DNA of 8,284 nt from a virus (Duplodnaviria > Heunggongvirae > Uroviricota > Caudoviricetes): positions 1 through 8,284 of the IMG/VR virus record IMGVR_UViG_2737471827_000007; one strand, 5' to 3'. Below the pieces are notes generated by a model. The model saw nothing but the letters and a program-made list of their open reading frames with translations, had not been told where the DNA came from and did no database searches. The translations under genes and the position numbers were made by a program. This document shows, in pieces, positions 783 to 8,284 of the stretch (position 1 is its first letter; each line of letters opens with the position of its first letter).

Positions 783-1001
783 TTACATCCACATAATTTG
801 CTGCCCTGACGGCAACGGGTGCGGCCTTACGGCGTGGACTTCTCCCGGCTTCACAATGTATCGCTGTACCGACTCATAAGTGATGAACGTGGCGCTGCAA
901 TTCACGTTCTGACACTGGTGATAACGCTCTTTTGTCGTGTCAGTGATATAGCGACTTGTACGCGCATGTGCGGCATGCTGGCATAAAGGACAATGAAACA
1001 T
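783..1001 (-). CDS. ogr: Ogr/Delta-family zinc-finger late-gene transcriptional activator (72 aa)
   Basis: Translation MFHCPLCQHAAHARTSRYITDTTKERYHQCQNVNCSATFITYESVQRYIVKPGEVHAVRPHPLPSGQQIMWM has the C-X2-C-X22-C-X4-C spacing characteristic of P2 Ogr / P4 Delta. It matches P2 Ogr as far as I can recall, and the 72-aa length matches. Start ATG at 1001-999 has SD AGAGG about 8 nt upstream. The six-frame track opens further upstream at a TTG (1064), which I consider non-coding. Confidence 0.9.
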   Translation of the reverse strand: MFHCPLCQHAAHARTSRYITDTTKERYHQCQNVNCSATFITYESVQRYIVKPGEVHAVRPHPLPSGQQIMWM

Positions 1002-1146
1002 CGCGAGCACCTCTTCCGGTTTTGTTGATGGTGCCATTTTAGTTAATTTATCCTTATAAAACAAATAGATAAAATAAAAACATCACTCATCATCTTCTGT
1101 TTCGTACTCCACATCAGAAAGCCTGACCTCAAGCTCCAGGGACGTC
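1002..1146. promoter_or_regulatory. AT-rich divergent intergenic region expected to carry the ogr promoter and an Ogr-dependent late promoter for P-Q
   Basis: About 145 bp of AT-rich sequence between divergent ogr and P. It contains a partial dyad TGT-N10-ACA (1098-1113), whereas the P2 late-promoter element as I remember it is TGT-N12-ACA, so the match is inexact. Transcription start sites cannot be determined from sequence alone. Confidence 0.3.
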
Positions 1147-1206: not shown

Positions 1207-2961
1207 ATGACGCGCTTACACGACCCGCGTCGTCAGGCGGCGCTGCTGTACTGGCAGGGGTTTTCCGTGCCGCAGATTGCCGCCATGTTGCAGATGAAAC
1301 GCCCGACGGTGCAGAGCTGGAAACAGCGCGACGGCTGGGACAGCGTTGCCCCCATCAGCCGTGTCGAAATGAGTCTGGAAGCGCGGCTGACCCAGCTCAT
1401 CATCAAACCGCAGAAAACCGGCGGTGACTTCAAGGAAATTGACCTGCTGGGACGCCAGATTGAACGACTGGCACGGGTAAACCGTTACAGTCAGACCGGC
1501 AACGAGGCAGACCTTAATCCGAACGTCGCTAACCGCAACAAAGGCGGACGGCGCAAACCGAAAAAGAATTTTTTCAGTGACGAGGCCATCGAAAAGCTGG
1601 AGCAGATTTTCTTTGAGCAGTCTTTCGATTATCAGTTGCACTGGTATCGCGCCGGGCTTGAGCACCGCATCCGCGATATCCTGAAATCCCGCCAGATTGG
1701 CGCAACGTTTTATTTTTCCCGCGAGGCGCTGCTGCGCGCCCTGAAAACCGGTCATAACCAGATTTTTCTGTCGGCCAGTAAAACGCAGGCGTATGTGTTC
1801 CGCGAATACATCATCGCCTTTGCCCGGCTGGTTGACGTTGACCTGACCGGTGACCCGATTGTCCTGGGCAATAACGGCGCAAAACTGATTTTTCTCGGCA
1901 CCAACTCCAACACCGCGCAGAGTCATAACGGCGACCTGTATGTCGACGAGATTTTCTGGATCCCGAATTTTCAGGTACTGCGTAAGGTGGCATCAGGTAT
2001 GGCCTCACAGAGTCACCTGCGCTCGACCTATTTCTCCACCCCGTCCACGCTGGCGCACGACGCCTACCCGTTCTGGTCGGGTGAACTGTTTAACCGGGGA
2101 CGCGCCAGCGCCGCTGAACGCGTGGAAATCGACGTCAGTCATAACGCCCTTGCCGGAGGTCTTCTCTGTGCGGACGGCCAGTGGCGGCAGATTGTCACCA
2201 TTGAGGACGCCCTGAAAGGTGGCTGCACATTGTTCGACATTGAGCAGCTTAAACGCGAAAACAGCGCCGACGATTTTAAAAACCTGTTCATGTGTGAATT
2301 TGTTGATGACAAGGCATCGGTATTCCCGTTCGAGGAGCTGCAACGCTGCATGGTCGACACGCTGGAAGAATGGGAAGACTATGCGCCGTTTGCCGCAAAT
2401 CCGTTCGGCTCCCGACCGGTATGGATTGGTTACGACCCGTCACACCGTGGCGACAGCGCCGGATGCGTGGTACTGGCACCGCCGGTGGTGGCCGGTGGCA
2501 AATTCAGAATACTTGAGCGTCACCAGTGGAAAGGTATGGACTTTGCCACCCAGGCGGAATCCATCCGCAAACTCACCGAAAAATACAACGTCGAATACAT
2601 CGGTATTGATGCCACCGGCCTCGGTGTCGGCGTGTTCCAGCTTGTGCGCTCGTTCTATCCCGCCGCGCGCGACATCCGCTACACGCCGGAAATGAAAACC
2701 GCAATGGTGCTCAAGGCAAAAGACGTTATCCGCCGTGGCTGTCTGGAATATGACGTCAGCGCCACCGACATCACCAGCTCGTTCATGGCTATCCGCAAGA
2801 CCATGACCAGCAGCGGACGCAGCGCCACCTATGAGGCCAGCCGCAGCGAGGAAGCCAGCCACGCCGACCTCGCCTGGGCGACCATGCACGCCCTGTTAAA
2901 TGAGCCACTCACCGCCGGTATCAGCACTCCGCTGACATCCACCATTCTGGAGTTTTACTGA
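1207..2961 (+). CDS. P: terminase large (ATPase) subunit, P2 gpP-like
   Basis: Long ORF of 584 aa from ATG 1207, or 604 aa from the alternative in-frame GTG at 1147, which has AGGGA 4 nt upstream. N-terminal region PRRQAALLYWQGFSVPQIAAMLQMKRPTVQSWKQRDGWD and overall length fit P2 gpP (about 590 aa from memory). Stop TGA 2959-2961 overlaps the Q start by 1 nt, as in P2. Confidence 0.9.
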   Translation: MTRLHDPRRQAALLYWQGFSVPQIAAMLQMKRPTVQSWKQRDGWDSVAPISRVEMSLEARLTQLIIKPQKTGGDFKEIDLLGRQIERLARVNRYSQTGNEADLNPNVANRNKGGRRKPKKNFFSDEAIEKLEQIFFEQSFDYQLHWYRAGLEHRIRDILKSRQIGATFYFSREALLRALKTGHNQIFLSASKTQAYVFREYIIAFARLVDVDLTGDPIVLGNNGAKLIFLGTNSNTAQSHNGDLYVDEIFWIPNFQVLRKVASGMASQSHLRSTYFSTPSTLAHDAYPFWSGELFNRGRASAAERVEIDVSHNALAGGLLCADGQWRQIVTIEDALKGGCTLFDIEQLKRENSADDFKNLFMCEFVDDKASVFPFEELQRCMVDTLEEWEDYAPFAANPFGSRPVWIGYDPSHRGDSAGCVVLAPPVVAGGKFRILERHQWKGMDFATQAESIRKLTEKYNVEYIGIDATGLGVGVFQLVRSFYPAARDIRYTPEMKTAMVLKAKDVIRRGCLEYDVSATDITSSFMAIRKTMTSSGRSATYEASRSEEASHADLAWATMHALLNEPLTAGISTPLTSTILEFY

Positions 2962-3995
2962 TGAGCAAGAAAAAAGGGAAAACACCGCAACCTGCGGCAA
3001 AAACAATGACCGCCAGCGCCCCGAAAATGGAGGCATTCACCTTTGGTGAGCCGGTGCCGGTACTCGACCGCCGTGACATTCTGGATTACGTCGAATGCAT
3101 CAGTAACGGCAGATGGTATGAGCCACCAGTCAGCTTTACCGGTCTGGCAAAAAGCCTGCGTGCTGCCGTGCATCACAGCTCCCCGATTTACGTCAAACGT
3201 AATATTCTGGCTTCAACGTTTATCCCGCACCCGTGGCTTTCCCAGCAGGATTTCAGCCGTTTTGTGCTGGATTTTCTGGTGTTCGGTAATGCGTTTCTGG
3301 AAAAGCGTTACAGCACCACCGGTAAGGTCATCAGACTGGAAACCTCACCGGCAAAATATACCCGCCGTGGCGTGGAGGAGGATGTTTACTGGTGGGTGCC
3401 GTCCTTCAACGAGCCGACAGCCTTCACGCCCGGCTCCGTGTTTCACCTGCTGGAGCCGGATATTAATCAGGAGCTGTACGGCCTGCCGGAATATCTCAGC
3501 GCCCTTAACTCTGCCTGGCTGAATGAGTCGGCCACGCTGTTCCGCCGCAAGTATTACGAAAACGGCGCACATGCCGGATACATCATGTACGTCACCGATG
3601 CCGTGCAGGACCGCAACGATATCGAAATGCTTCGCGAAAACATGGTTAAGTCGAAAGGCCGCAACAACTTTAAAAACCTGTTTCTCTATGCCCCGCAGGG
3701 GAAAGCTGACGGCATTAAAATTATCCCGCTCAGTGAAGTGGCAACGAAGGACGATTTTTTTAATATCAAAAAAGCCAGTGCCGCAGACCTGCTGGATGCG
3801 CACCGCATCCCCTTTCAGTTGATGGGCGGCAAGCCGGAGAACGTCGGGTCGTTGGGTGATATTGAGAAAGTGGCAAAGGTCTTTGTCCGCAATGAGCTTA
3901 TCCCGTTACAGGACAGGATCCGCGAGATAAACGGCTGGCTCGGTCAGGAGGTCATCCGCTTTAAAAACTACTCACTGGACACTGACAACGGCTAA
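2961..3995 (+). CDS. Q: portal (capsid portal vertex) protein, P2 gpQ-like (344 aa)
   Basis: 344-aa ORF, the same length as P2 gpQ. ATG at 2961 overlaps the P stop (TGATG). It is immediately upstream of a terminator and the cos site, matching P2 Q-cos synteny. Confidence 0.9.
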   Translation: MSKKKGKTPQPAAKTMTASAPKMEAFTFGEPVPVLDRRDILDYVECISNGRWYEPPVSFTGLAKSLRAAVHHSSPIYVKRNILASTFIPHPWLSQQDFSRFVLDFLVFGNAFLEKRYSTTGKVIRLETSPAKYTRRGVEEDVYWWVPSFNEPTAFTPGSVFHLLEPDINQELYGLPEYLSALNSAWLNESATLFRRKYYENGAHAGYIMYVTDAVQDRNDIEMLRENMVKSKGRNNFKNLFLYAPQGKADGIKIIPLSEVATKDDFFNIKKASAADLLDAHRIPFQLMGGKPENVGSLGDIEKVAKVFVRNELIPLQDRIREINGWLGQEVIRFKNYSLDTDNG

Positions 3996-4000
3996 ACATC

Positions 4001-4022
4001 GCCGCCTGCGGGCGGCTTTTTT
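4001..4022 (+). terminator. rho-independent terminator of the P-Q operon
   Basis: GCCGCC (4001-4006), loop TGCG, GGCGGC (4011-4016), followed by TTTTTT (4017-4022), 6 nt after the Q stop codon. Confidence 0.75.
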
Positions 4023-4164
4023 ACACCCCGTCATCACGCCCTCACACACTCACCACCGCACAAAACAGCCCGCAGACACACCAACGCCCCGGTGCACAAT
4101 CTAAACGCCATCAAGACGCGCTCAGACGCTGAAAAAATAAAATCAGCACCACCGCCAGCGCGCA

Positions 4165-4183
4165 GTGCTTTCCCCGCCTCGCC
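4165..4183 (-). other. P2/P4-type cos cohesive-end sequence (19 nt)
   Basis: Plus strand reads GTGCTTTCCCCGCCTCGCC; its reverse complement GGCGAGGCGGGGAAAGCAC is the 19-nt P2 cohesive end as I remember it. It lies about 170 bp beyond the Q stop, consistent with the P2 left-end arrangement (cos-Q-P). Confidence 0.75.
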
Positions 4184-4468
4184 CGCCCGCTTCACGGGGC
4201 GGTTTTAATGCAGTTGCATAGATACTATGGATCCGCACCAGTCCTGACCGCACGCAGCCTGAACGGACATCCCCAACGCATGCAAAAACATTCACTTGTT
4301 GCATGCATAGCTTTTTAAGTACGCCATACCGCAACTGTACATTTTTAAGCAATTGGCAACTTTAAAAAATTTACATTGCTTTCAAGACCTTATCATCCGT
4401 AGTCTCTGTTTTTTACTTTGAGCTACATCAATAAAATCTCAAACATGTTTAATGCAAAGCCCTTGTTA

Positions 4469-4521
4469 CACAACATAGAATGTATGTCTAGAAACAACGA
4501 CATACTATATGTTGTGTTTTT
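4469..4521 (+). terminator. candidate intrinsic terminator or structured RNA element (interrupted 16-bp hairpin plus T5)
   Basis: CACAACATA (4469-4477) pairs with TATGTTGTG (4508-4516) and GTATGTC (4482-4488) pairs with GACATAC (4499-4505), with a 10-nt apical loop, followed immediately by TTTTT (4517-4521). The stem is AU-rich, so this could equally be a 5' leader structure. Confidence 0.35.
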
Positions 4522-4583
4522 CCGGCTCTCTGTTCGGTGATATGCCAAATCACTTTGCGTTTAAACAGAGCATTATTTCAGGG

Positions 4584-4598
4584 CAAGACTTCGCTCAA
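4584..4598 (+). repeat. 15-bp exact direct repeat, copy 1 (CAAGACTTCGCTCAA)
   Basis: Identical 15-mer recurs at 4848-4862. The two copies bracket the small peptide gene and its terminator. Confidence 0.7.
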
Positions 4599-4661
4599 AA
4601 GTCATTCCACCTAAGAAGCGCATATACCGGTGGAAGTTGCCCTCTACTTACAGGAGGCAAT

Positions 4662-4775
4662 ATGAAGAAATGCTATTACTGCATTCTCGTTCTGGCCCTC
4701 TTTGGCTATCCAAACGGTAGTCCGAGTGGTTTGTCAGTAAACGTCAGTAATATCAATGTCAGCATTATGCTTTAA
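4662..4775 (+). CDS. small hydrophobic peptide (37 aa): MKKCYYCILVLALFGYPNGSPSGLSVNVSNINVSIML
   Basis: Consensus SD AGGAGG (4652-4657) 4 nt before ATG 4662; stop TAA 4773-4775; intrinsic terminator follows 12 nt later. N-terminus is KK plus a 12-13 residue hydrophobic stretch, then a Ser/Asn-rich tail. The six-frame track shows a longer in-frame 88-aa ORF from 4509, but that ATG sits inside a hairpin and has no RBS. Confidence 0.45.
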   Translation: MKKCYYCILVLALFGYPNGSPSGLSVNVSNINVSIML

Positions 4776-4787
4776 TATGCTTCAAAC

Positions 4788-4817
4788 AAAAAAACCACCT
4801 GCCAGGGTGGTTTTTTT
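4788..4817. terminator. bidirectional intrinsic terminator (A7-CCACC-loop-GGTGG-T7)
   Basis: AAAAAAACCACC (4788-4799) and GGTGGTTTTTTT (4806-4817) are perfectly complementary, with loop TGCCAG. The T-run on the plus strand and A-run (T-run on minus) let it terminate both the peptide transcript and the convergent A operon. Confidence 0.6.
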
Positions 4818-4847
4818 GCGCCCATCATCAATACGATGAAAGACTGA

Positions 4848-4862
4848 CAAGACTTCGCTCAA
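4848..4862 (+). repeat. 15-bp exact direct repeat, copy 2 (CAAGACTTCGCTCAA)
   Basis: Identical to 4584-4598. It is embedded in a short reiteration of AAGAC(T/G) at 4841-4846, 4849-4854 and 4861-4866. Confidence 0.7.
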
Positions 4863-4958
4863 GACGAATTATGCGTCGACATAAGGTTACCCGCAATGAT
4901 TTTATTAGACTAAATGGATGGCCTTTTATGACCCGGATCAAACGGCTGTCCTTACCGA

Positions 4959-5009
4959 CATGCTAGTCACTCAATAGCATTTAGCCTTCTAATTCAGCAT
5001 GCTATTGAC
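4959..5009. repeat. operator-like repeat cluster: CATGCTA direct copies with an inverted TAGCAT between them
   Basis: CATGCTAGTCAC (4959-4970) and CATGCTATTGAC (4998-5009) match at 10 of 12 positions, 39 bp apart. The inverted hexamer TAGCAT sits at 4975-4980. The cluster lies in non-coding DNA just 3' of A. Confidence 0.35.
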
Positions 5010-5077
5010 CTTCTGCTGCCCCATAACTGCTCCGCATAAGCCATTCAATGCCATATCAAATCACGTTGTGTTTTTAC

Positions 5078-7354
5078 TCAAATGGGTAACGAGAACCCCG
5101 GCCACTCATCAGCAACCGGATACGTGAATTTTTTCCCGTCATAATTTACGGTCGCGCCACGCGCCAGCGCCTCAAGCTCCCATCGTTGCGGCCTGATACC
5201 GTTCTGAGCGAGGTCAACGCGGATACGGGTAATTTGCAATCGTTCAGACCTGGTCAGTCTGGCAGATGGTGCAATTTCATGCGGTTTTAACGGGATTCCG
5301 TTTCTTTGCTGACGATTTGGTGTTCTCAGTCCGTGTTTTAATGCGCCCCTGAGCGCCATCACGACCTCCGGGTCACTCCATTCGATAACACCGTCATCTA
5401 CCAGATTAAGCACTGCTGCGGCGTGCTCAGAAGGTGTGGGAGCCGGTAACGAAGTATCACCACCGGTGAGCTTTCCACAGTTATTGACAGGACTCCGAGG
5501 CGCGGCGATGCCGCTTTTTAAAGTCAAAGGCTCAACGACCGGCACTTTCGGAACAATGCGCCAGTCCGTCGTTCTGGTGATATGAATATGACGCGCGCCG
5601 AGATGCGGCGCGTAAATGCCGACCACTCTCTCGACTTCTTCCTCGTACTCGTTAACGTCATCCGACGGACTACGGGCGACCCTGACAGTCTGACAATCGC
5701 GCGGGACATTTGCCCCACCCTGCGCGCTGATATACAACGCAAAATCACCACTGTCTGCGGCAGCGCGAGCAGCCTCGACGCGTTCGTCAAACTCATCAGC
5801 AATACTGACGCCGCGAGGCAATTTGCGTAGTTCACGGTAAGCCCCCATTGTCGGCAGTCCAACCGTTTTAAATTGCGGGATGCGCCACGTTGACGCCCAT
5901 GCGGTAACAGCCGCGGCAGTATCTTTAAGCGGCTTACCGGTATCGTTATCGAGCTGACCATCCAGTGCATAGCCGTCGATATTTTTTGAAATGTATTTCG
6001 CGATATATCCCGCAGCACCGCCCCGGTTAAGGTGCTTTGCCTGAAAACGGTTTCGCGCGGCTCCTCTTTCGTCACCATCCTCTTTGAGCGCATAGCGACG
6101 CATGATTTCGATAATCTGGTTACGCTGGCGTGGATTACAAAAAAGCATCATATGCCAGTGCGGCGTTCCGTCGTGGTGTGGCTCGACGACACGCAAACCG
6201 TAGACCTGTAAATCATTATCCTTGAATGCCGTGCGCATCAGGCTCCAGATGCGGCAGAGATAACGCTGCGCATCCTTTGGATTAAATGCCTCATCGTTCC
6301 AGCCGTGATTAAGCTGAACGGTTTTACTTTCGCCTTTTCTGACCTGACGAGTCGGGTGATACTTTGACGGCGCGGTCAGCGTGATAAACATCCCCACATC
6401 ACCCTCTGCGGCGGCGTAACGCTCAATACCGGCAATGGTGTTCATCAGCTCCATCCGGCGAATTTCAGGATTAGAAATACTGCCCATCACCTTACTGATA
6501 AGGTCGATGCGCTCGCCGGTTTCCCTGTTTTCAAGGTCACACGATTTAAGAAATTCCAGATTTGCCTGGCGGCGCGCACGCACATCACGAATGGCGTGTT
6601 TACTGGCATAAGGAGAACGGTCTTTATTGACCTCCCCGACAGCTATCAGTAACGCTTCATGCCAGCGCATACGCTGGCCTTTAAGCTGATGAGTCCACCA
6701 CTCATCGTTAAACAGACGGGCAATGGCAGAATATGCCTGCCTCGTGGTCATCTGCCCTTTACGGTATTTTTTCCAGTAGAGCGGGGAAATATTGAAAGCA
6801 CGTGCAGCGCCAGCAACATGACCATAGAGGTGAGCCTGCGCCTCATCCGTAAACAGCGATTCTTTTTCGCCATGCGCATCCACCCAGGCATCGCTGAGTT
6901 CCTCATACATCATGAAAAGCTGCGATGAGATACGGGCAGCAAACTTTTTCAGCTCCTTGTCATTCATTCCCGGCAGGCGCGCATAGTGGTCACGCTCTGC
7001 CAGAAACAGTAACGACGCGTCGGTGTTCATTTCATGGCGCTGATTCACACGCTCAATGCGCGGCCATAAACGACGCTGAAAAGTGGATGTGAGGAAATAA
7101 AACCCGTGCACCGGGCTTTTATTGCGCCGGATGTAGTCATAGCGTGAAGTAAACAGCGAGCGCAAAAAGTAAGGCAGGCGGTTAATCGTGGATAAAACAC
7201 CTTGCACCTGACGCATCTCGTCACGTGTAAGGGGTCTTTCGCGCCCGACGGCCTCGCGTGGCGCGTTCCATGCATAAGCACCGGTAAACGCCTTACCGGT
7301 GCCTGCAGCAAATGCTGACGGAGGGACAAAACGCCCGGAGGCTTTAACGGCCAT
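5078..7354 (-). CDS. A: rolling-circle replication initiation endonuclease, P2 gpA-like (HUH/Y-X3-Y)
   Basis: 758 aa from ATG 7354 (the ORF opens at TTG 7396, giving 772 aa); P2 gpA is about 761 aa from memory. Contains HUH-type motif PHWHMM and paired catalytic tyrosines in YIAKYISKNIDGY. Confidence 0.9.
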   Translation of the reverse strand: MAVKASGRFVPPSAFAAGTGKAFTGAYAWNAPREAVGRERPLTRDEMRQVQGVLSTINRLPYFLRSLFTSRYDYIRRNKSPVHGFYFLTSTFQRRLWPRIERVNQRHEMNTDASLLFLAERDHYARLPGMNDKELKKFAARISSQLFMMYEELSDAWVDAHGEKESLFTDEAQAHLYGHVAGAARAFNISPLYWKKYRKGQMTTRQAYSAIARLFNDEWWTHQLKGQRMRWHEALLIAVGEVNKDRSPYASKHAIRDVRARRQANLEFLKSCDLENRETGERIDLISKVMGSISNPEIRRMELMNTIAGIERYAAAEGDVGMFITLTAPSKYHPTRQVRKGESKTVQLNHGWNDEAFNPKDAQRYLCRIWSLMRTAFKDNDLQVYGLRVVEPHHDGTPHWHMMLFCNPRQRNQIIEIMRRYALKEDGDERGAARNRFQAKHLNRGGAAGYIAKYISKNIDGYALDGQLDNDTGKPLKDTAAAVTAWASTWRIPQFKTVGLPTMGAYRELRKLPRGVSIADEFDERVEAARAAADSGDFALYISAQGGANVPRDCQTVRVARSPSDDVNEYEEEVERVVGIYAPHLGARHIHITRTTDWRIVPKVPVVEPLTLKSGIAAPRSPVNNCGKLTGGDTSLPAPTPSEHAAAVLNLVDDGVIEWSDPEVVMALRGALKHGLRTPNRQQRNGIPLKPHEIAPSARLTRSERLQITRIRVDLAQNGIRPQRWELEALARGATVNYDGKKFTYPVADEWPGFSLPI
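5484..5503 (-). other. candidate replication origin / gpA nick site inside the A coding sequence
   Basis: Minus strand reads GCGCCTCGGAGTCCTGTCAA. This matches what I recall as the P2 ori sequence cleaved by gpA, and P2 ori is known to lie within the 3' part of gene A. The match is to memory only. Confidence 0.3.
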
Positions 7355-7619
7355 ATGAGCCAAAAGCCTCTGAACAACGCCTGCTGAGTTGCTCAACCTG
7401 CGCGTTTAAATCAGCAAAAGACTTTGCGCTTCCGGTCAGAATATCGTGATGCATCAGGCTGGAAACGAGCTGGCTTAATTTCGGATAATAACCAACCACC
7501 GCCAGCCATTCCTGACCGGCGTTTTTACCGCTTTCCGCTCTCTTTTTCTCGTGGAGAATAAACTGAAAGCTGTCACTGGTAACGACATAACGTTCGCCAA
7601 TTTCAATACGAATACTCAT
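7344..7619 (-). CDS. hypothetical small protein (91 aa) upstream of and overlapping A; early-operon small ORF
   Basis: ATG at 7619 with SD GGAG 6 nt upstream; stop overlaps the A start (7354) by 11 nt, suggesting coupled expression. Translation MSIRIEIGERYVVTSDSFQFILHEKK... has no motif I recognise and no Cys cluster, so it is not an Ogr- or DksA-like finger. Confidence 0.6.
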   Translation of the reverse strand: MSIRIEIGERYVVTSDSFQFILHEKKRAESGKNAGQEWLAVVGYYPKLSQLVSSLMHHDILTGSAKSFADLNAQVEQLSRRCSEAFGSYGR

Positions 7620-7699
7620 GCCGTTCTCCGGTAATGTTTGTTTTTTGCTTCAAAGACTGACTGGCAGGAAACACAACGCGTGGCTGACGGATATCCGGC

Positions 7700-8284
7700 A
7701 TGTTCACAAAATTAATTCAATTGGATGAATTTTCCGGGCAACACCCAATTCACGGACTGCCGCCACTGGCGGAGGCCAACCCTGAAATGACGTTCCTGGA
7801 AAAAGCAGAAATCGAAAAACTGTTAAATGTTTTGGCTGGTGATGACTTACTTGTCGCGCTTTTATGTCTGAGCACTGGAGGAAGATGGACGGAAGTTGCC
7901 ACGCTAAAACCAGCACAGATTACAAATTGCAGGGTTACCTTCCTGAAAACCAAAAACGGTAAAAAGCGAACCGTGCCGATTTCTGAGGAACTGGAGAAAA
8001 AAGTTAAAGAGGAGGCCAGCGCCAAATTATTCAAAGTTGATTATGAGAAATTTTGCGGGATTTTACGCAGAGTGAAACCTGATATACCACCCAATCAGGC
8101 AACCCACATCCTGCGGCATACATTCGCAAGCCATTTCATGATGAATGGGGGCAATATAATCGCACTGCAACAGATTCTGGGACATGCGAGCATTCAGCAG
8201 ACGATGGCCTATGCGCACCTTGCGCCTGACTATCTGCAAAATGCCGTCGCTCTGAATCCACTAAAAGGCGGAGTGACGTTATAA
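7700..8284 (+). CDS. tyrosine recombinase (phage integrase family), catalytic domain only, 194 aa
   Basis: Box I TGGRWTE, box II HILRHTFASHF, and LGHASIQQTMAYAHL with the catalytic Tyr. An in-frame TGA at 7685-7687 limits any N-terminal extension to 4 codons, so the protein lacks the usual arm- and core-binding N-terminal domains of full integrases (330-400 aa). There is no obvious SD. Confidence 0.8.
   Translation: MFTKLIQLDEFSGQHPIHGLPPLAEANPEMTFLEKAEIEKLLNVLAGDDLLVALLCLSTGGRWTEVATLKPAQITNCRVTFLKTKNGKKRTVPISEELEKKVKEEASAKLFKVDYEKFCGILRRVKPDIPPNQATHILRHTFASHFMMNGGNIIALQQILGHASIQQTMAYAHLAPDYLQNAVALNPLKGGVTL

Follow-up and report, generated by a model that had tools for sequence, protein, structure and literature searches.

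The window analyzed here (the whole 8,284-bp stretch of IMG/VR record IMGVR_UViG_2737471827_000007) corresponds to a heavily deleted P2-like (Peduovirus) prophage, as judged from its open reading frames (ORFs) and their family profile matches. Between the cos region (about 4000-4230) and replication gene A (5078-7396, minus strand) lies a conserved intergenic element that adjoins the 3' end of gene A and contains the stretch at 4370-4521, which a preliminary description had marked as a possible small RNA (sRNA) or structured leader upstream of a gene for a small hydrophobic peptide. This element is a cassette of about 585 bp (about 4362-4945) with an order of parts common to all copies: an nrdDG-like promoter, a leader of ~160-180 nt, an ORF, a terminator, a second copy of a leader motif, and a minus-strand promoter. 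In our preferred reading, which we consider quite probable, 4370-4521 belongs to an nrdDG-type promoter-operator of a mobile cassette, in which a leader-controlled ORF of 37 amino acids (aa) faces a convergent antisense sRNA. Homology, motifs, conservation, covariation, and selection on the coding sequence were read from the sequences themselves, and we infer from them the transcription starts, protein binding, RNA-RNA regulation, and toxicity that this reading includes.

The nrdDG-like promoter region and its predicted operator sites

Positions 4393-4460, a 68-bp piece of the window, align at 88% identity with E. coli sequence between treC and nrdD. The alignment with the nrdD promoters of E. 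coli, E. albertii, K. pneumoniae, and S. enterica is collinear from TTAAAAAATTTACAT (~4362) to ATATGTTGT (4507-4515) and includes, at the left edge of the cassette homology, an upstream block (AAAAATTTACAT, 4364-4376, plus strand) common to the chromosomal nrdD promoters. On the strength of this homology, we regard 4362-4517 as a promoter-operator, a paralog of the enterobacterial nrdDG promoter, and not as an sRNA gene. Over about 87 nt, the cassette promoters are 76 to 88% identical to a chromosomal nrdD promoter. The copies in P2-like prophages are closest to E. coli nrdD (77 to 82%) and those on Klebsiella plasmids to K. pneumoniae nrdD (83 to 88%, with an identical site 2 for the regulator FNR), while the copy on a Salmonella plasmid is not host matched and is an exception to this own-genus pattern. 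The pattern suggests gene conversion with the resident promoter, or its recapture by recombination.

FNR site 2 (TTGAGCTACATCAA, 4418-4431) matches 9 of the 10 defined positions of TTGAT-N4-ATCAA, is identical to site 2 of E. coli nrdDG, and is the only FNR-like site in the window. In the published nrdDG probes, this sequence is centered at -64.5 and site 1, TTGATGCAAAGCAC, at -33.5, and site 2 was reported to be necessary and sufficient (PMC10425943). The published FNR and NrdR probes both match the promoter region of the window. What remains of site 1 (TTAATGCAAAGCCC, 4449-4462) has the critical G of TTGAT replaced by A (TTAAT), and the second FNR half-site at -33.5, which is present in the other allele found in P2-like prophages (see below) and in most relatives as TTGATGCAAA or ATGATGCAAA, is missing from the window. 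A -10 hexamer, TAGAAT (4476-4481, plus strand), has its first base 27 nt beyond that of site 1, a spacing that is the same in every family member and in the nrdD promoters of E. coli, Klebsiella, and Salmonella. From the conserved spacing to FNR sites at -64.5 and -33.5, we predict that the peptide mRNA starts at 4489 ± 2 nt on the plus strand; with a start at 4489, the center of site 2 falls at -64.5 and its spacing to the -10 is that of E. coli nrdDG. A pattern scan of genome contigs for the FNR pair returned only Escherichia nrdD promoters.

Two boxes for the repressor NrdR surround the predicted start. Box 2 (ATACTATATGTTGTGT, 4502-4517) has all six of the key positions of the motif (C4, A6, A8, T9, T11, and G13; PMC13584703), agrees with 14 of the 16 consensus positions, a quality for which 0.003 16-mers are expected per shuffled window, and is invariant. 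Box 1 (ACACAACATAGAATGT, 4468-4483) is degenerate, with four of the six key positions: its left half is the consensus ACACAACAT, and its right half coincides with the -10, so that T11 and G13 are missing. These two are the only 16-mers in the 8,284 bp with at least 13 of 16 consensus positions (0.05 expected per shuffled window). The corresponding boxes of nrdDG, GCACTATATATAGACT and ACCCAATATGTTGTAT, are 15 bp apart (PMC12176259). In E. coli in vivo, NrdR represses with linkers of 15 to 17 and 26 ± 1 bp and not with linkers of 18 to 24 bp (PMC12051234); we took an operator to be two 16-bp boxes separated by 15 to 17 or 26 ± 1 bp (PMC12051234, PMC13584703).

Measured in this way, the window departs from an operator both in its boxes (four and six of six key positions) and in its linker of 18 bp. 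The other E. coli allele has boxes of the same quality with a linker of 16 bp. Two loci in filamentous prophages, one from a metagenome (L056) and one from GCA_001654985.1 (L057), have two boxes with six of six key positions and linkers of 15 and 26 bp, respectively, and a plasmid of K. variicola (L062) has an equally complete pair with a linker of 26 bp. Plasmids of E. hormaechei (L061; linker of 25 bp) and Salmonella (L069; linker of 15 bp) have one complete box and one with five of six key positions, and the core of box 2 in the Salmonella copy is that of box 2 of E. coli nrdAB. Thus, the spacing is functional for every recognizable pair except that of the window, whereas a canonical pair at functional spacing arose once in 20,000 random 105-mers. 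The canonical pairs of these five relatives, all at repressing linkers, argue that NrdR control is an ancestral and selected property of the cassette, which the window allele has probably escaped.

In the cassette promoter and in its chromosomal counterpart, FNR sites 2 and 1, the -10, and the NrdR boxes follow one another in the same order and at the same spacing, and box 2 contains ATATGTTGT in both. The cassette promoter differs in driving a 37-aa ORF on mobile elements instead of nrdDG. In the P2 copies, moreover, the half-site of box 1 now lies on the -10, having moved by about 9 to 10 bp, and box 2 has had its left half rebuilt by a 10-bp insertion, and the window copy adds the mutated site 1 and the 18-bp linker.

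The same sequence accounts for one feature of the preliminary description, an interrupted hairpin of 16 bp followed by five T's, which does exist (16 to 17 bp, 4468-4521). Its outer arms (ACACAACATA, 4468-4477, and TATGTTGTGT, 4508-4517) are complementary at 10 of 10 positions, the inner arms are GTATGTC (4482-4488) and GACATAC (4499-4505), and the T5 run on the plus strand (4517-4521) directly follows the stem, so that the RNA of the window allele would form a stem-loop with an adjoining U-tract. The predicted fold (-20.6 kcal/mol against a shuffle mean of -9.3; z = -4.55; equaled by 0 of 200 shuffles) is beyond chance expectation; the consensus terminator scan missed it because the stem is A+T rich and the loop has 10 nt. 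The invariant outer arms are half-boxes of NrdR; both boxes are partial palindromes of one motif, and this is what gives rise to the hairpin. No second copy of ACACAACATA that could serve as an operator elsewhere in the prophage was found in the window. An Ogr-type TGT-N12-ACA within the hairpin (4485-4502) was discarded, since it occurs in this allele only, chance alone would give about two per window, and it is not followed by a suitable -10.

E. coli genomes contain two discrete alleles of this region, the window version in 81 and the other in 66, without intermediates, and pattern scans of IMG/VR and metagenomes recovered only these two E. coli haplotypes and their recombinants. In one recombinant (EC12, L005), the flanks are identical to the window allele and the promoter core (4414-4553) is that of the other. 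E. coli W carries the window allele (NC_017664.1, 2327521-2328121), and EC12 and ETEC1717 are examples of strains with the 16-bp allele. Only the window allele, among all family members, has the inner stem, an unbroken T-run, and the palindrome of 10 bp (AAACATGTTT), which the preliminary description had correctly placed at 4441-4450. In the other E. coli allele, the corresponding sequences are ...ACATAAAATGCA--ACCAGAAAC... and GTGTTGTTCAGG; at the inner stem it has ...AAAATGCA--ACCAG..., and its T-run is broken (TTGTT, in GTGTTGTTCAGG). Its fold (-10.5 kcal/mol, z = -0.9) is no better than those of shuffled sequences. A 2-bp insertion and a few substitutions in the window allele would thus have lengthened the hairpin, shifted the NrdR spacing to 18 bp, and destroyed FNR site 1. 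Because site 1 is destroyed and the NrdR spacing broken, the window copy is probably dependent on FNR site 2 and poorly repressed by NrdR. The changes are clustered and make both the inner stem and AAACATGTTT into perfect palindromes, and one may speculate that they reflect quasi-palindrome correction.

These clustered, allele-specific changes, along with the lost site 1, the box of four key positions, the 18-bp linker, and the frequency of the allele (81 genomes), could also be expected of a relic promoter. The FNR and NrdR sites would then be vestigial, the peptide promoter simple and largely unregulated, and the hairpin with its T5 an insulator against read-through from the cos region and the neighboring hot-spot, produced either by selection or by a quasi-palindrome template-switch mutation. 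We consider this explanation, including its account of the hairpin, unlikely: FNR site 2 is intact and identical to that of the host, in which it is reported to be necessary and sufficient for nrdDG (PMC10425943), box 2 does not vary, and two strong terminators recovered by the consensus scan (4001-4016 and 4183-4202) already lie upstream.

Much less probable still is the arrangement originally put forward, a plus-strand sRNA of 110 to 130 nt that starts from a promoter at ~4370-4405, ends at the hairpin and T5 at 4521, and regulates the peptide mRNA in cis or in trans. In its favor, the hairpin with T5 is stable in the window allele, and TTTACA (4370-4375) and TATCAT (4391-4396) are present as good hexamers, the latter better than the CGTCAT that the E. 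coli nrdD promoter has at that position. However, they are only 15 bp apart. Of the second proposed pair, TAGTCT was correctly located (4400-4405), whereas TTGCTT lies at 4376-4381, which makes the spacer 18 bp and not 17. The upstream candidates at 4370-4405 are weak, one for its 15-bp spacer and one for hexamers with three of six matches, and the consensus scan, which found one site in 3950-5150 against 2.2 expected, reported no plus-strand promoter in 4370-4410. The homology also speaks against a transcript ending at 4521, since in the known promoter both the -10 and the start correspond to positions within the hairpin. Neither can the hairpin be a conserved sRNA terminator, since structure and U-tract are missing from the other E. 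coli allele (66 genomes) and all other members of the family (~10 further variants). Given that RNAduplex energies are inflated for long sequences, we judged pairing by the longest helix relative to shuffles; RNA from 4400-4521 reaches 9 bp with the leader, a length equaled by 777 of 1,000 shuffles. A search of the window and three relatives against Rfam at permissive E-values gave only subthreshold, terminator-driven matches (RNAI and Phe leader). Annotators should note that two adjacent palindromic operator boxes can look like a convincing hairpin with a T-run.

The peptide gene, its leader, and a probable convergent small RNA

The ORF MKKCYYCILVLALFGYPNGSPSGLSVNVSNINVSIML (4662-4775, plus strand) comprises 37 codons and a stop and is preceded by the Shine-Dalgarno (SD) sequence AGGAGG (4652-4657). 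It evolves under purifying selection, with pairwise ratios of nonsynonymous to synonymous substitution (dN/dS) of 0.08 to 0.35. The product has 37 to 38 aa in 15 aligned variants and 39 aa in the Salmonella plasmid variant, and the core CILVL..L..GYP is invariant among six aligned peptides. A phmmer search of 1.84 billion representatives retrieved relatives at 56 to 69% identity, while Pfam, PHROGs, NCBIfam, and PADLOC gave no match to the peptide. From this pattern of conservation we take 4662-4775 to be a real coding gene for a conserved small protein, the candidate toxin of the cassette.

The cassette occurs in 158 of 5,426 complete E. coli genomes (about 3%), in all of which the PGAP annotation is empty at this place, and in the loci inspected the E. 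coli copies always adjoin the gpA gene of P2-like prophages. By tblastn, we found unannotated copies of the ORF on 393 plasmids, 390 of them from Klebsiella (mostly conjugative, IncFIB/FII) and the others from Enterobacter, and most of the cassette is present on 388 of the 393. Further copies adjoin the secretin, Zot, and DUF2523 genes of filamentous prophages, and a more divergent form is found on Salmonella plasmids. Such a distribution fits a mobile addiction or defense cassette.

From the predicted start, the peptide mRNA would have a folded 5' untranslated region (5' UTR) of about 174 nt (4489-4661). The structured leader of the preliminary description is thus found here, while the stretch at 4370-4521 to which it had been assigned is instead the putative promoter and operator of the peptide gene. 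The leader includes a hairpin at 4528-4570, another that pairs 4605-4611 with 4629-4635 and shows a compensatory change from A-U to G-C, and an anti-SD hairpin (4636-4661) that sequesters AGGAGG. Across the family, four pairs of the fold have double (compensatory) changes and the anti-SD pairing is conserved; the E. coli alleles have, in addition, a long-range helix over the start codon.

Downstream of the ORF, an inverted repeat, A7-CCACC-TGCCAG-GGTGG-T7 (4788-4817), forms a bidirectional intrinsic terminator, common to the convergent mRNA and sRNA and invariant in the family. Its sequence, AAAAAAACCACC...GGTGGTTTTTTT, resembles the terminator of ColE1 RNA I (RF00106); nothing but the terminator matches, and the best match is on the strand of the mRNA, where the 3' end of the ORF lies. 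The Rfam RNAI matches, noted for the window and for L057 at 1075-1174, score 24 to 45 bits (up to 44.9) against a gathering score of 47, and we rejected membership in RF00106 because the score is below this curated threshold. In a blastn search, about 1,000 plasmid records matched the query over the terminator segment only.

Beyond the terminator, a 15-nt sequence of the leader is repeated exactly in direct orientation (CAAGACTTCGCTCAA, 4584-4598 and 4848-4862), and it is here that we place a likely gene for an antisense sRNA (about 4860-4789, minus strand; about 72 nt), with a promoter and a terminator of its own. The promoter (4896-4868) has TTGCGG as -35 (4896-4891), a 17-nt spacer, and CATAAT as -10 (4873-4868). 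In this TTGCGR-N17-CATAAT arrangement, the hexamers and the length of the spacer (18 bp in one variant) are conserved, the spacer sequence is free, and an A/T-rich block stands upstream. The predicted RNA begins with the seed GAGCGAAGUCUUGUC (4860-4846), continues with a middle hairpin (4843-4819), and ends in the shared terminator; its fold in the window has a z of -4.7. The middle hairpin is too variable for alignment with MAFFT and RNAalifold, and single-sequence folds were used, which in each variant gave the 5' seed, a hairpin of changing sequence, and the terminator.

The 5' end of this RNA is complementary to GGCAAGACTTCGCTCAA in the leader (4582-4598, plus strand). All 12 variants have a contiguous sRNA-leader helix of 14 to 20 bp that ends 65 to 67 nt before the ATG; in the window it extends over 15 bp from the likely +1, a length reached by 0 of 1,000 shuffles in the longest-helix test. 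The Salmonella plasmid variant (L069) has AAGGCTTTGCTCA in both copies, that is, two mirrored substitutions (A to G and C to T, as seen in pCFSAN008899), and the 5' flank of the helix takes G-C, G.U, and A-U states among the variants. Hence, the RNA partner that had been suggested next to the peptide gene probably exists, on the minus strand and downstream of the ORF. A further motif, ATGAC-N4-ATCAA (4928-4941), lies 31 nt upstream of the sRNA -35, centered near -73.5, and recurs at the same position in five of seven variants scanned, with a varying N4. It may be a class I site for a factor of the FNR/CRP family, in which case the antisense RNA would itself be regulated.

Proposed regulation and comparison with known type I systems

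These parts can be assembled into the following scheme. In the absence of oxygen, two FNR sites would activate the promoter, whose -10 lies at a fixed spacing, and the pair of NrdR boxes flanking the start would repress it when NrdR is loaded with dATP and ATP. Transcription from ~4489, in the hairpin loop, would yield an mRNA of about 330 nt that ends at the bidirectional terminator and is translationally closed, its 174-nt folded leader hiding the ribosome-binding site. The convergent sRNA of ~72 nt would be made from its own sigma-70 promoter, constitutively or under separate regulation, and would pair through its 5' end at 4582-4598, blocking translation or causing decay and so keeping the peptide off. 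This logic would be that of type I pairs such as timP/timR, zorO/orzO, and tisB/istR-1, and if timP/timR and other type I systems are a guide, the peptide could be a membrane-active toxin or modulator made at low oxygen and a falling dATP/ATP ratio.

Several observations weigh against this scheme or narrow it. Box 1 of the window lacks T11 and G13, the latter critical in vitro (PMC13584703), and the 18-bp linker falls in the derepressed range, all of which makes NrdR control of the window copy doubtful. Nor is such control family-wide, as the main plasmid lineage of K. pneumoniae has no recognizable boxes. Both transcription start sites are predictions. The core of the seed and target is invariant in most variants, so that the covariation comes from one doubly substituted variant and the changes in the flank, and gene conversion between the seed and target copies is not formally excluded. 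Finally, the peptide showed no homology to any known type I toxin among the families and TimP that were compared, and its hydrophobic stretch is only about 13 residues long.

One close parallel is timP/timR (the ryfA locus). TimP is of similar size (38 aa in Salmonella and, by its annotation, 41 aa in E. coli K-12) and likewise has a hydrophobic, signal-like N terminus, and the 5' end of the sRNA also pairs with the 5' UTR (~18 nt) far upstream of the start codon, at a target position that is conserved. However, we found no sequence similarity between timP/timR and the cassette and no Rfam match to ryfA, and homology of the peptide to TimP was rejected for lack of any sequence similarity. The cassette sRNA is convergent, downstream, and shares its terminator with the mRNA, whereas timR is divergent and upstream, and the cassette resides on mobile elements behind an nrdDG-type promoter.

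In tisB/istR-1, zorO/orzO, shoB/ohsC, and dinQ/agrB there is also a long structured 5' UTR with a hidden ribosome-binding site and an sRNA whose short target lies far upstream of the AUG. The toxin promoters of tisB and dinQ are wired to the host stress regulator LexA. In the cassette, the regulators would be FNR and NrdR, that is, oxygen and deoxynucleoside triphosphate (dNTP) status, and the arrangement is convergent, with an unrelated peptide that is only a candidate toxin. Convergent genes are typical of the Gram-positive pairs txpA/ratA and bsrG/SR4, in which the overlap of the RNA 3' ends is the regulatory contact. The cassette RNAs likewise overlap at their 3' ends, but over the terminator only, and the conserved, covarying contact is between the 5' end of the sRNA and the mRNA's 5' UTR.

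The preliminary description had compared the locus to a type I toxin-antitoxin layout, and this part of it holds as far as the small hydrophobic peptide gene, structured leader, and RNA partner are concerned, all on comparative evidence, although the sRNA is not at 4370-4521. The conserved small hydrophobic ORF, the adjacent sRNA gene, and the covarying complementarity are those expected of a type I system. Searches of Rfam, Pfam, NCBIfam, PHROGs, and PADLOC placed the cassette in none of their families, and the literature searched had no mention of NrdR boxes in P2-like phages or of cassette sequences. By its sequence, we class the cassette as type I toxin-antitoxin-like and a member of no described family. 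Its layout is convergent, with a common terminator, and the FNR/NrdR input would be unprecedented.

It is possible, although we would not count on it, that the cassette represents an undescribed mobile family of type I toxin-antitoxin-like systems that are wired to the NrdR and FNR of the host through a copy of the nrdDG promoter that recombination keeps matched to that of the resident host and that act as abortive-infection or addiction factors. If so, the peptide would be made when dNTPs collapse under low oxygen, for example during lytic phage infection or upon loss of the element, and its gene would be an NrdR-controlled gene other than ribonucleotide reductase. The literature presents NrdR as a repressor dedicated to the operons of ribonucleotide reductases, and a gene of a mobile element under a bona fide NrdR/FNR operator would extend its regulon; phages and plasmids would then be reading the dNTP and oxygen status of the host through a copied host promoter. 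We give hardly any credence to the converse idea that the sites act mainly as DNA, with replicating copies titrating NrdR and derepressing the host reductase genes to raise dNTPs while the transcript is secondary; canonical NrdR pairs are kept at functional spacings on multicopy or replicating elements and P2-like phages are not known to have a reductase of their own, but promoter geometry, leader, selected ORF, terminator, and sRNA gene are conserved together, and lineages without boxes keep the rest of the cassette.

Whatever its function, the natural variants of the cassette (linkers of 15, 16, 18, 25, and 26 bp and decayed boxes) are suited to an in vivo test of the NrdR spacing rules. In addition, an element that is unannotated on ~390 plasmids, mostly large conjugative ones of Klebsiella, could affect plasmid maintenance, persistence, and phage defense in clinically important strains.

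Prophage context

The prophage begins with a truncated gene on the minus strand (1-642), followed by ogr (783-1064, minus strand), terminase gene P (1147-2961), portal gene Q (2961-3995), and, past the cos region and the cassette, gene A, a DUF5405 gene, and a truncated integrase gene. The capsid and tail genes are missing between ogr and P, which abut (783-2961). On the other side of the deletion derivative (7344-8284), only the C-terminal 194 aa of the integrase remain and directly follow the DUF5405 gene, which implies that the cox/C/B region is missing. Comparable deletion derivatives were found in two other loci (L010 and L043).

The product of the first gene (213 aa) gave nothing significant in Pfam, PHROGs, or NCBIfam but matched PADLOC profile PD-T4-10_B (E = 1.3e-34) over profile positions 139-346 of 353 only; it looks like an anti-phage defense gene, truncated at its N terminus and adjoining ogr. 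The Ogr/Delta zinc finger encoded next to it had a weak match to the Pfam Zn_ribbon_NrdR family that is below threshold (E = 0.013), and the NrdR boxes are 3.4 kb away.

In the P2-like loci compared, the cassette is a constant neighbor of gene A, whereas the cargo of the adjacent defense hot-spot, between the portal/cos side and the cassette, varies. The hot-spot is empty in the window (4000-4310, in comparison with L003 and L006-L010) and is occupied in other genomes by an AAA ATPase pair, an ImmA/IrrE gene, a SIR2 gene, or other cargo. A 30-nt sequence of the first leader hairpin (4533-4562) is repeated imperfectly, in direct orientation and with 73% identity, just past the stop codon of gene A (5044-5073).

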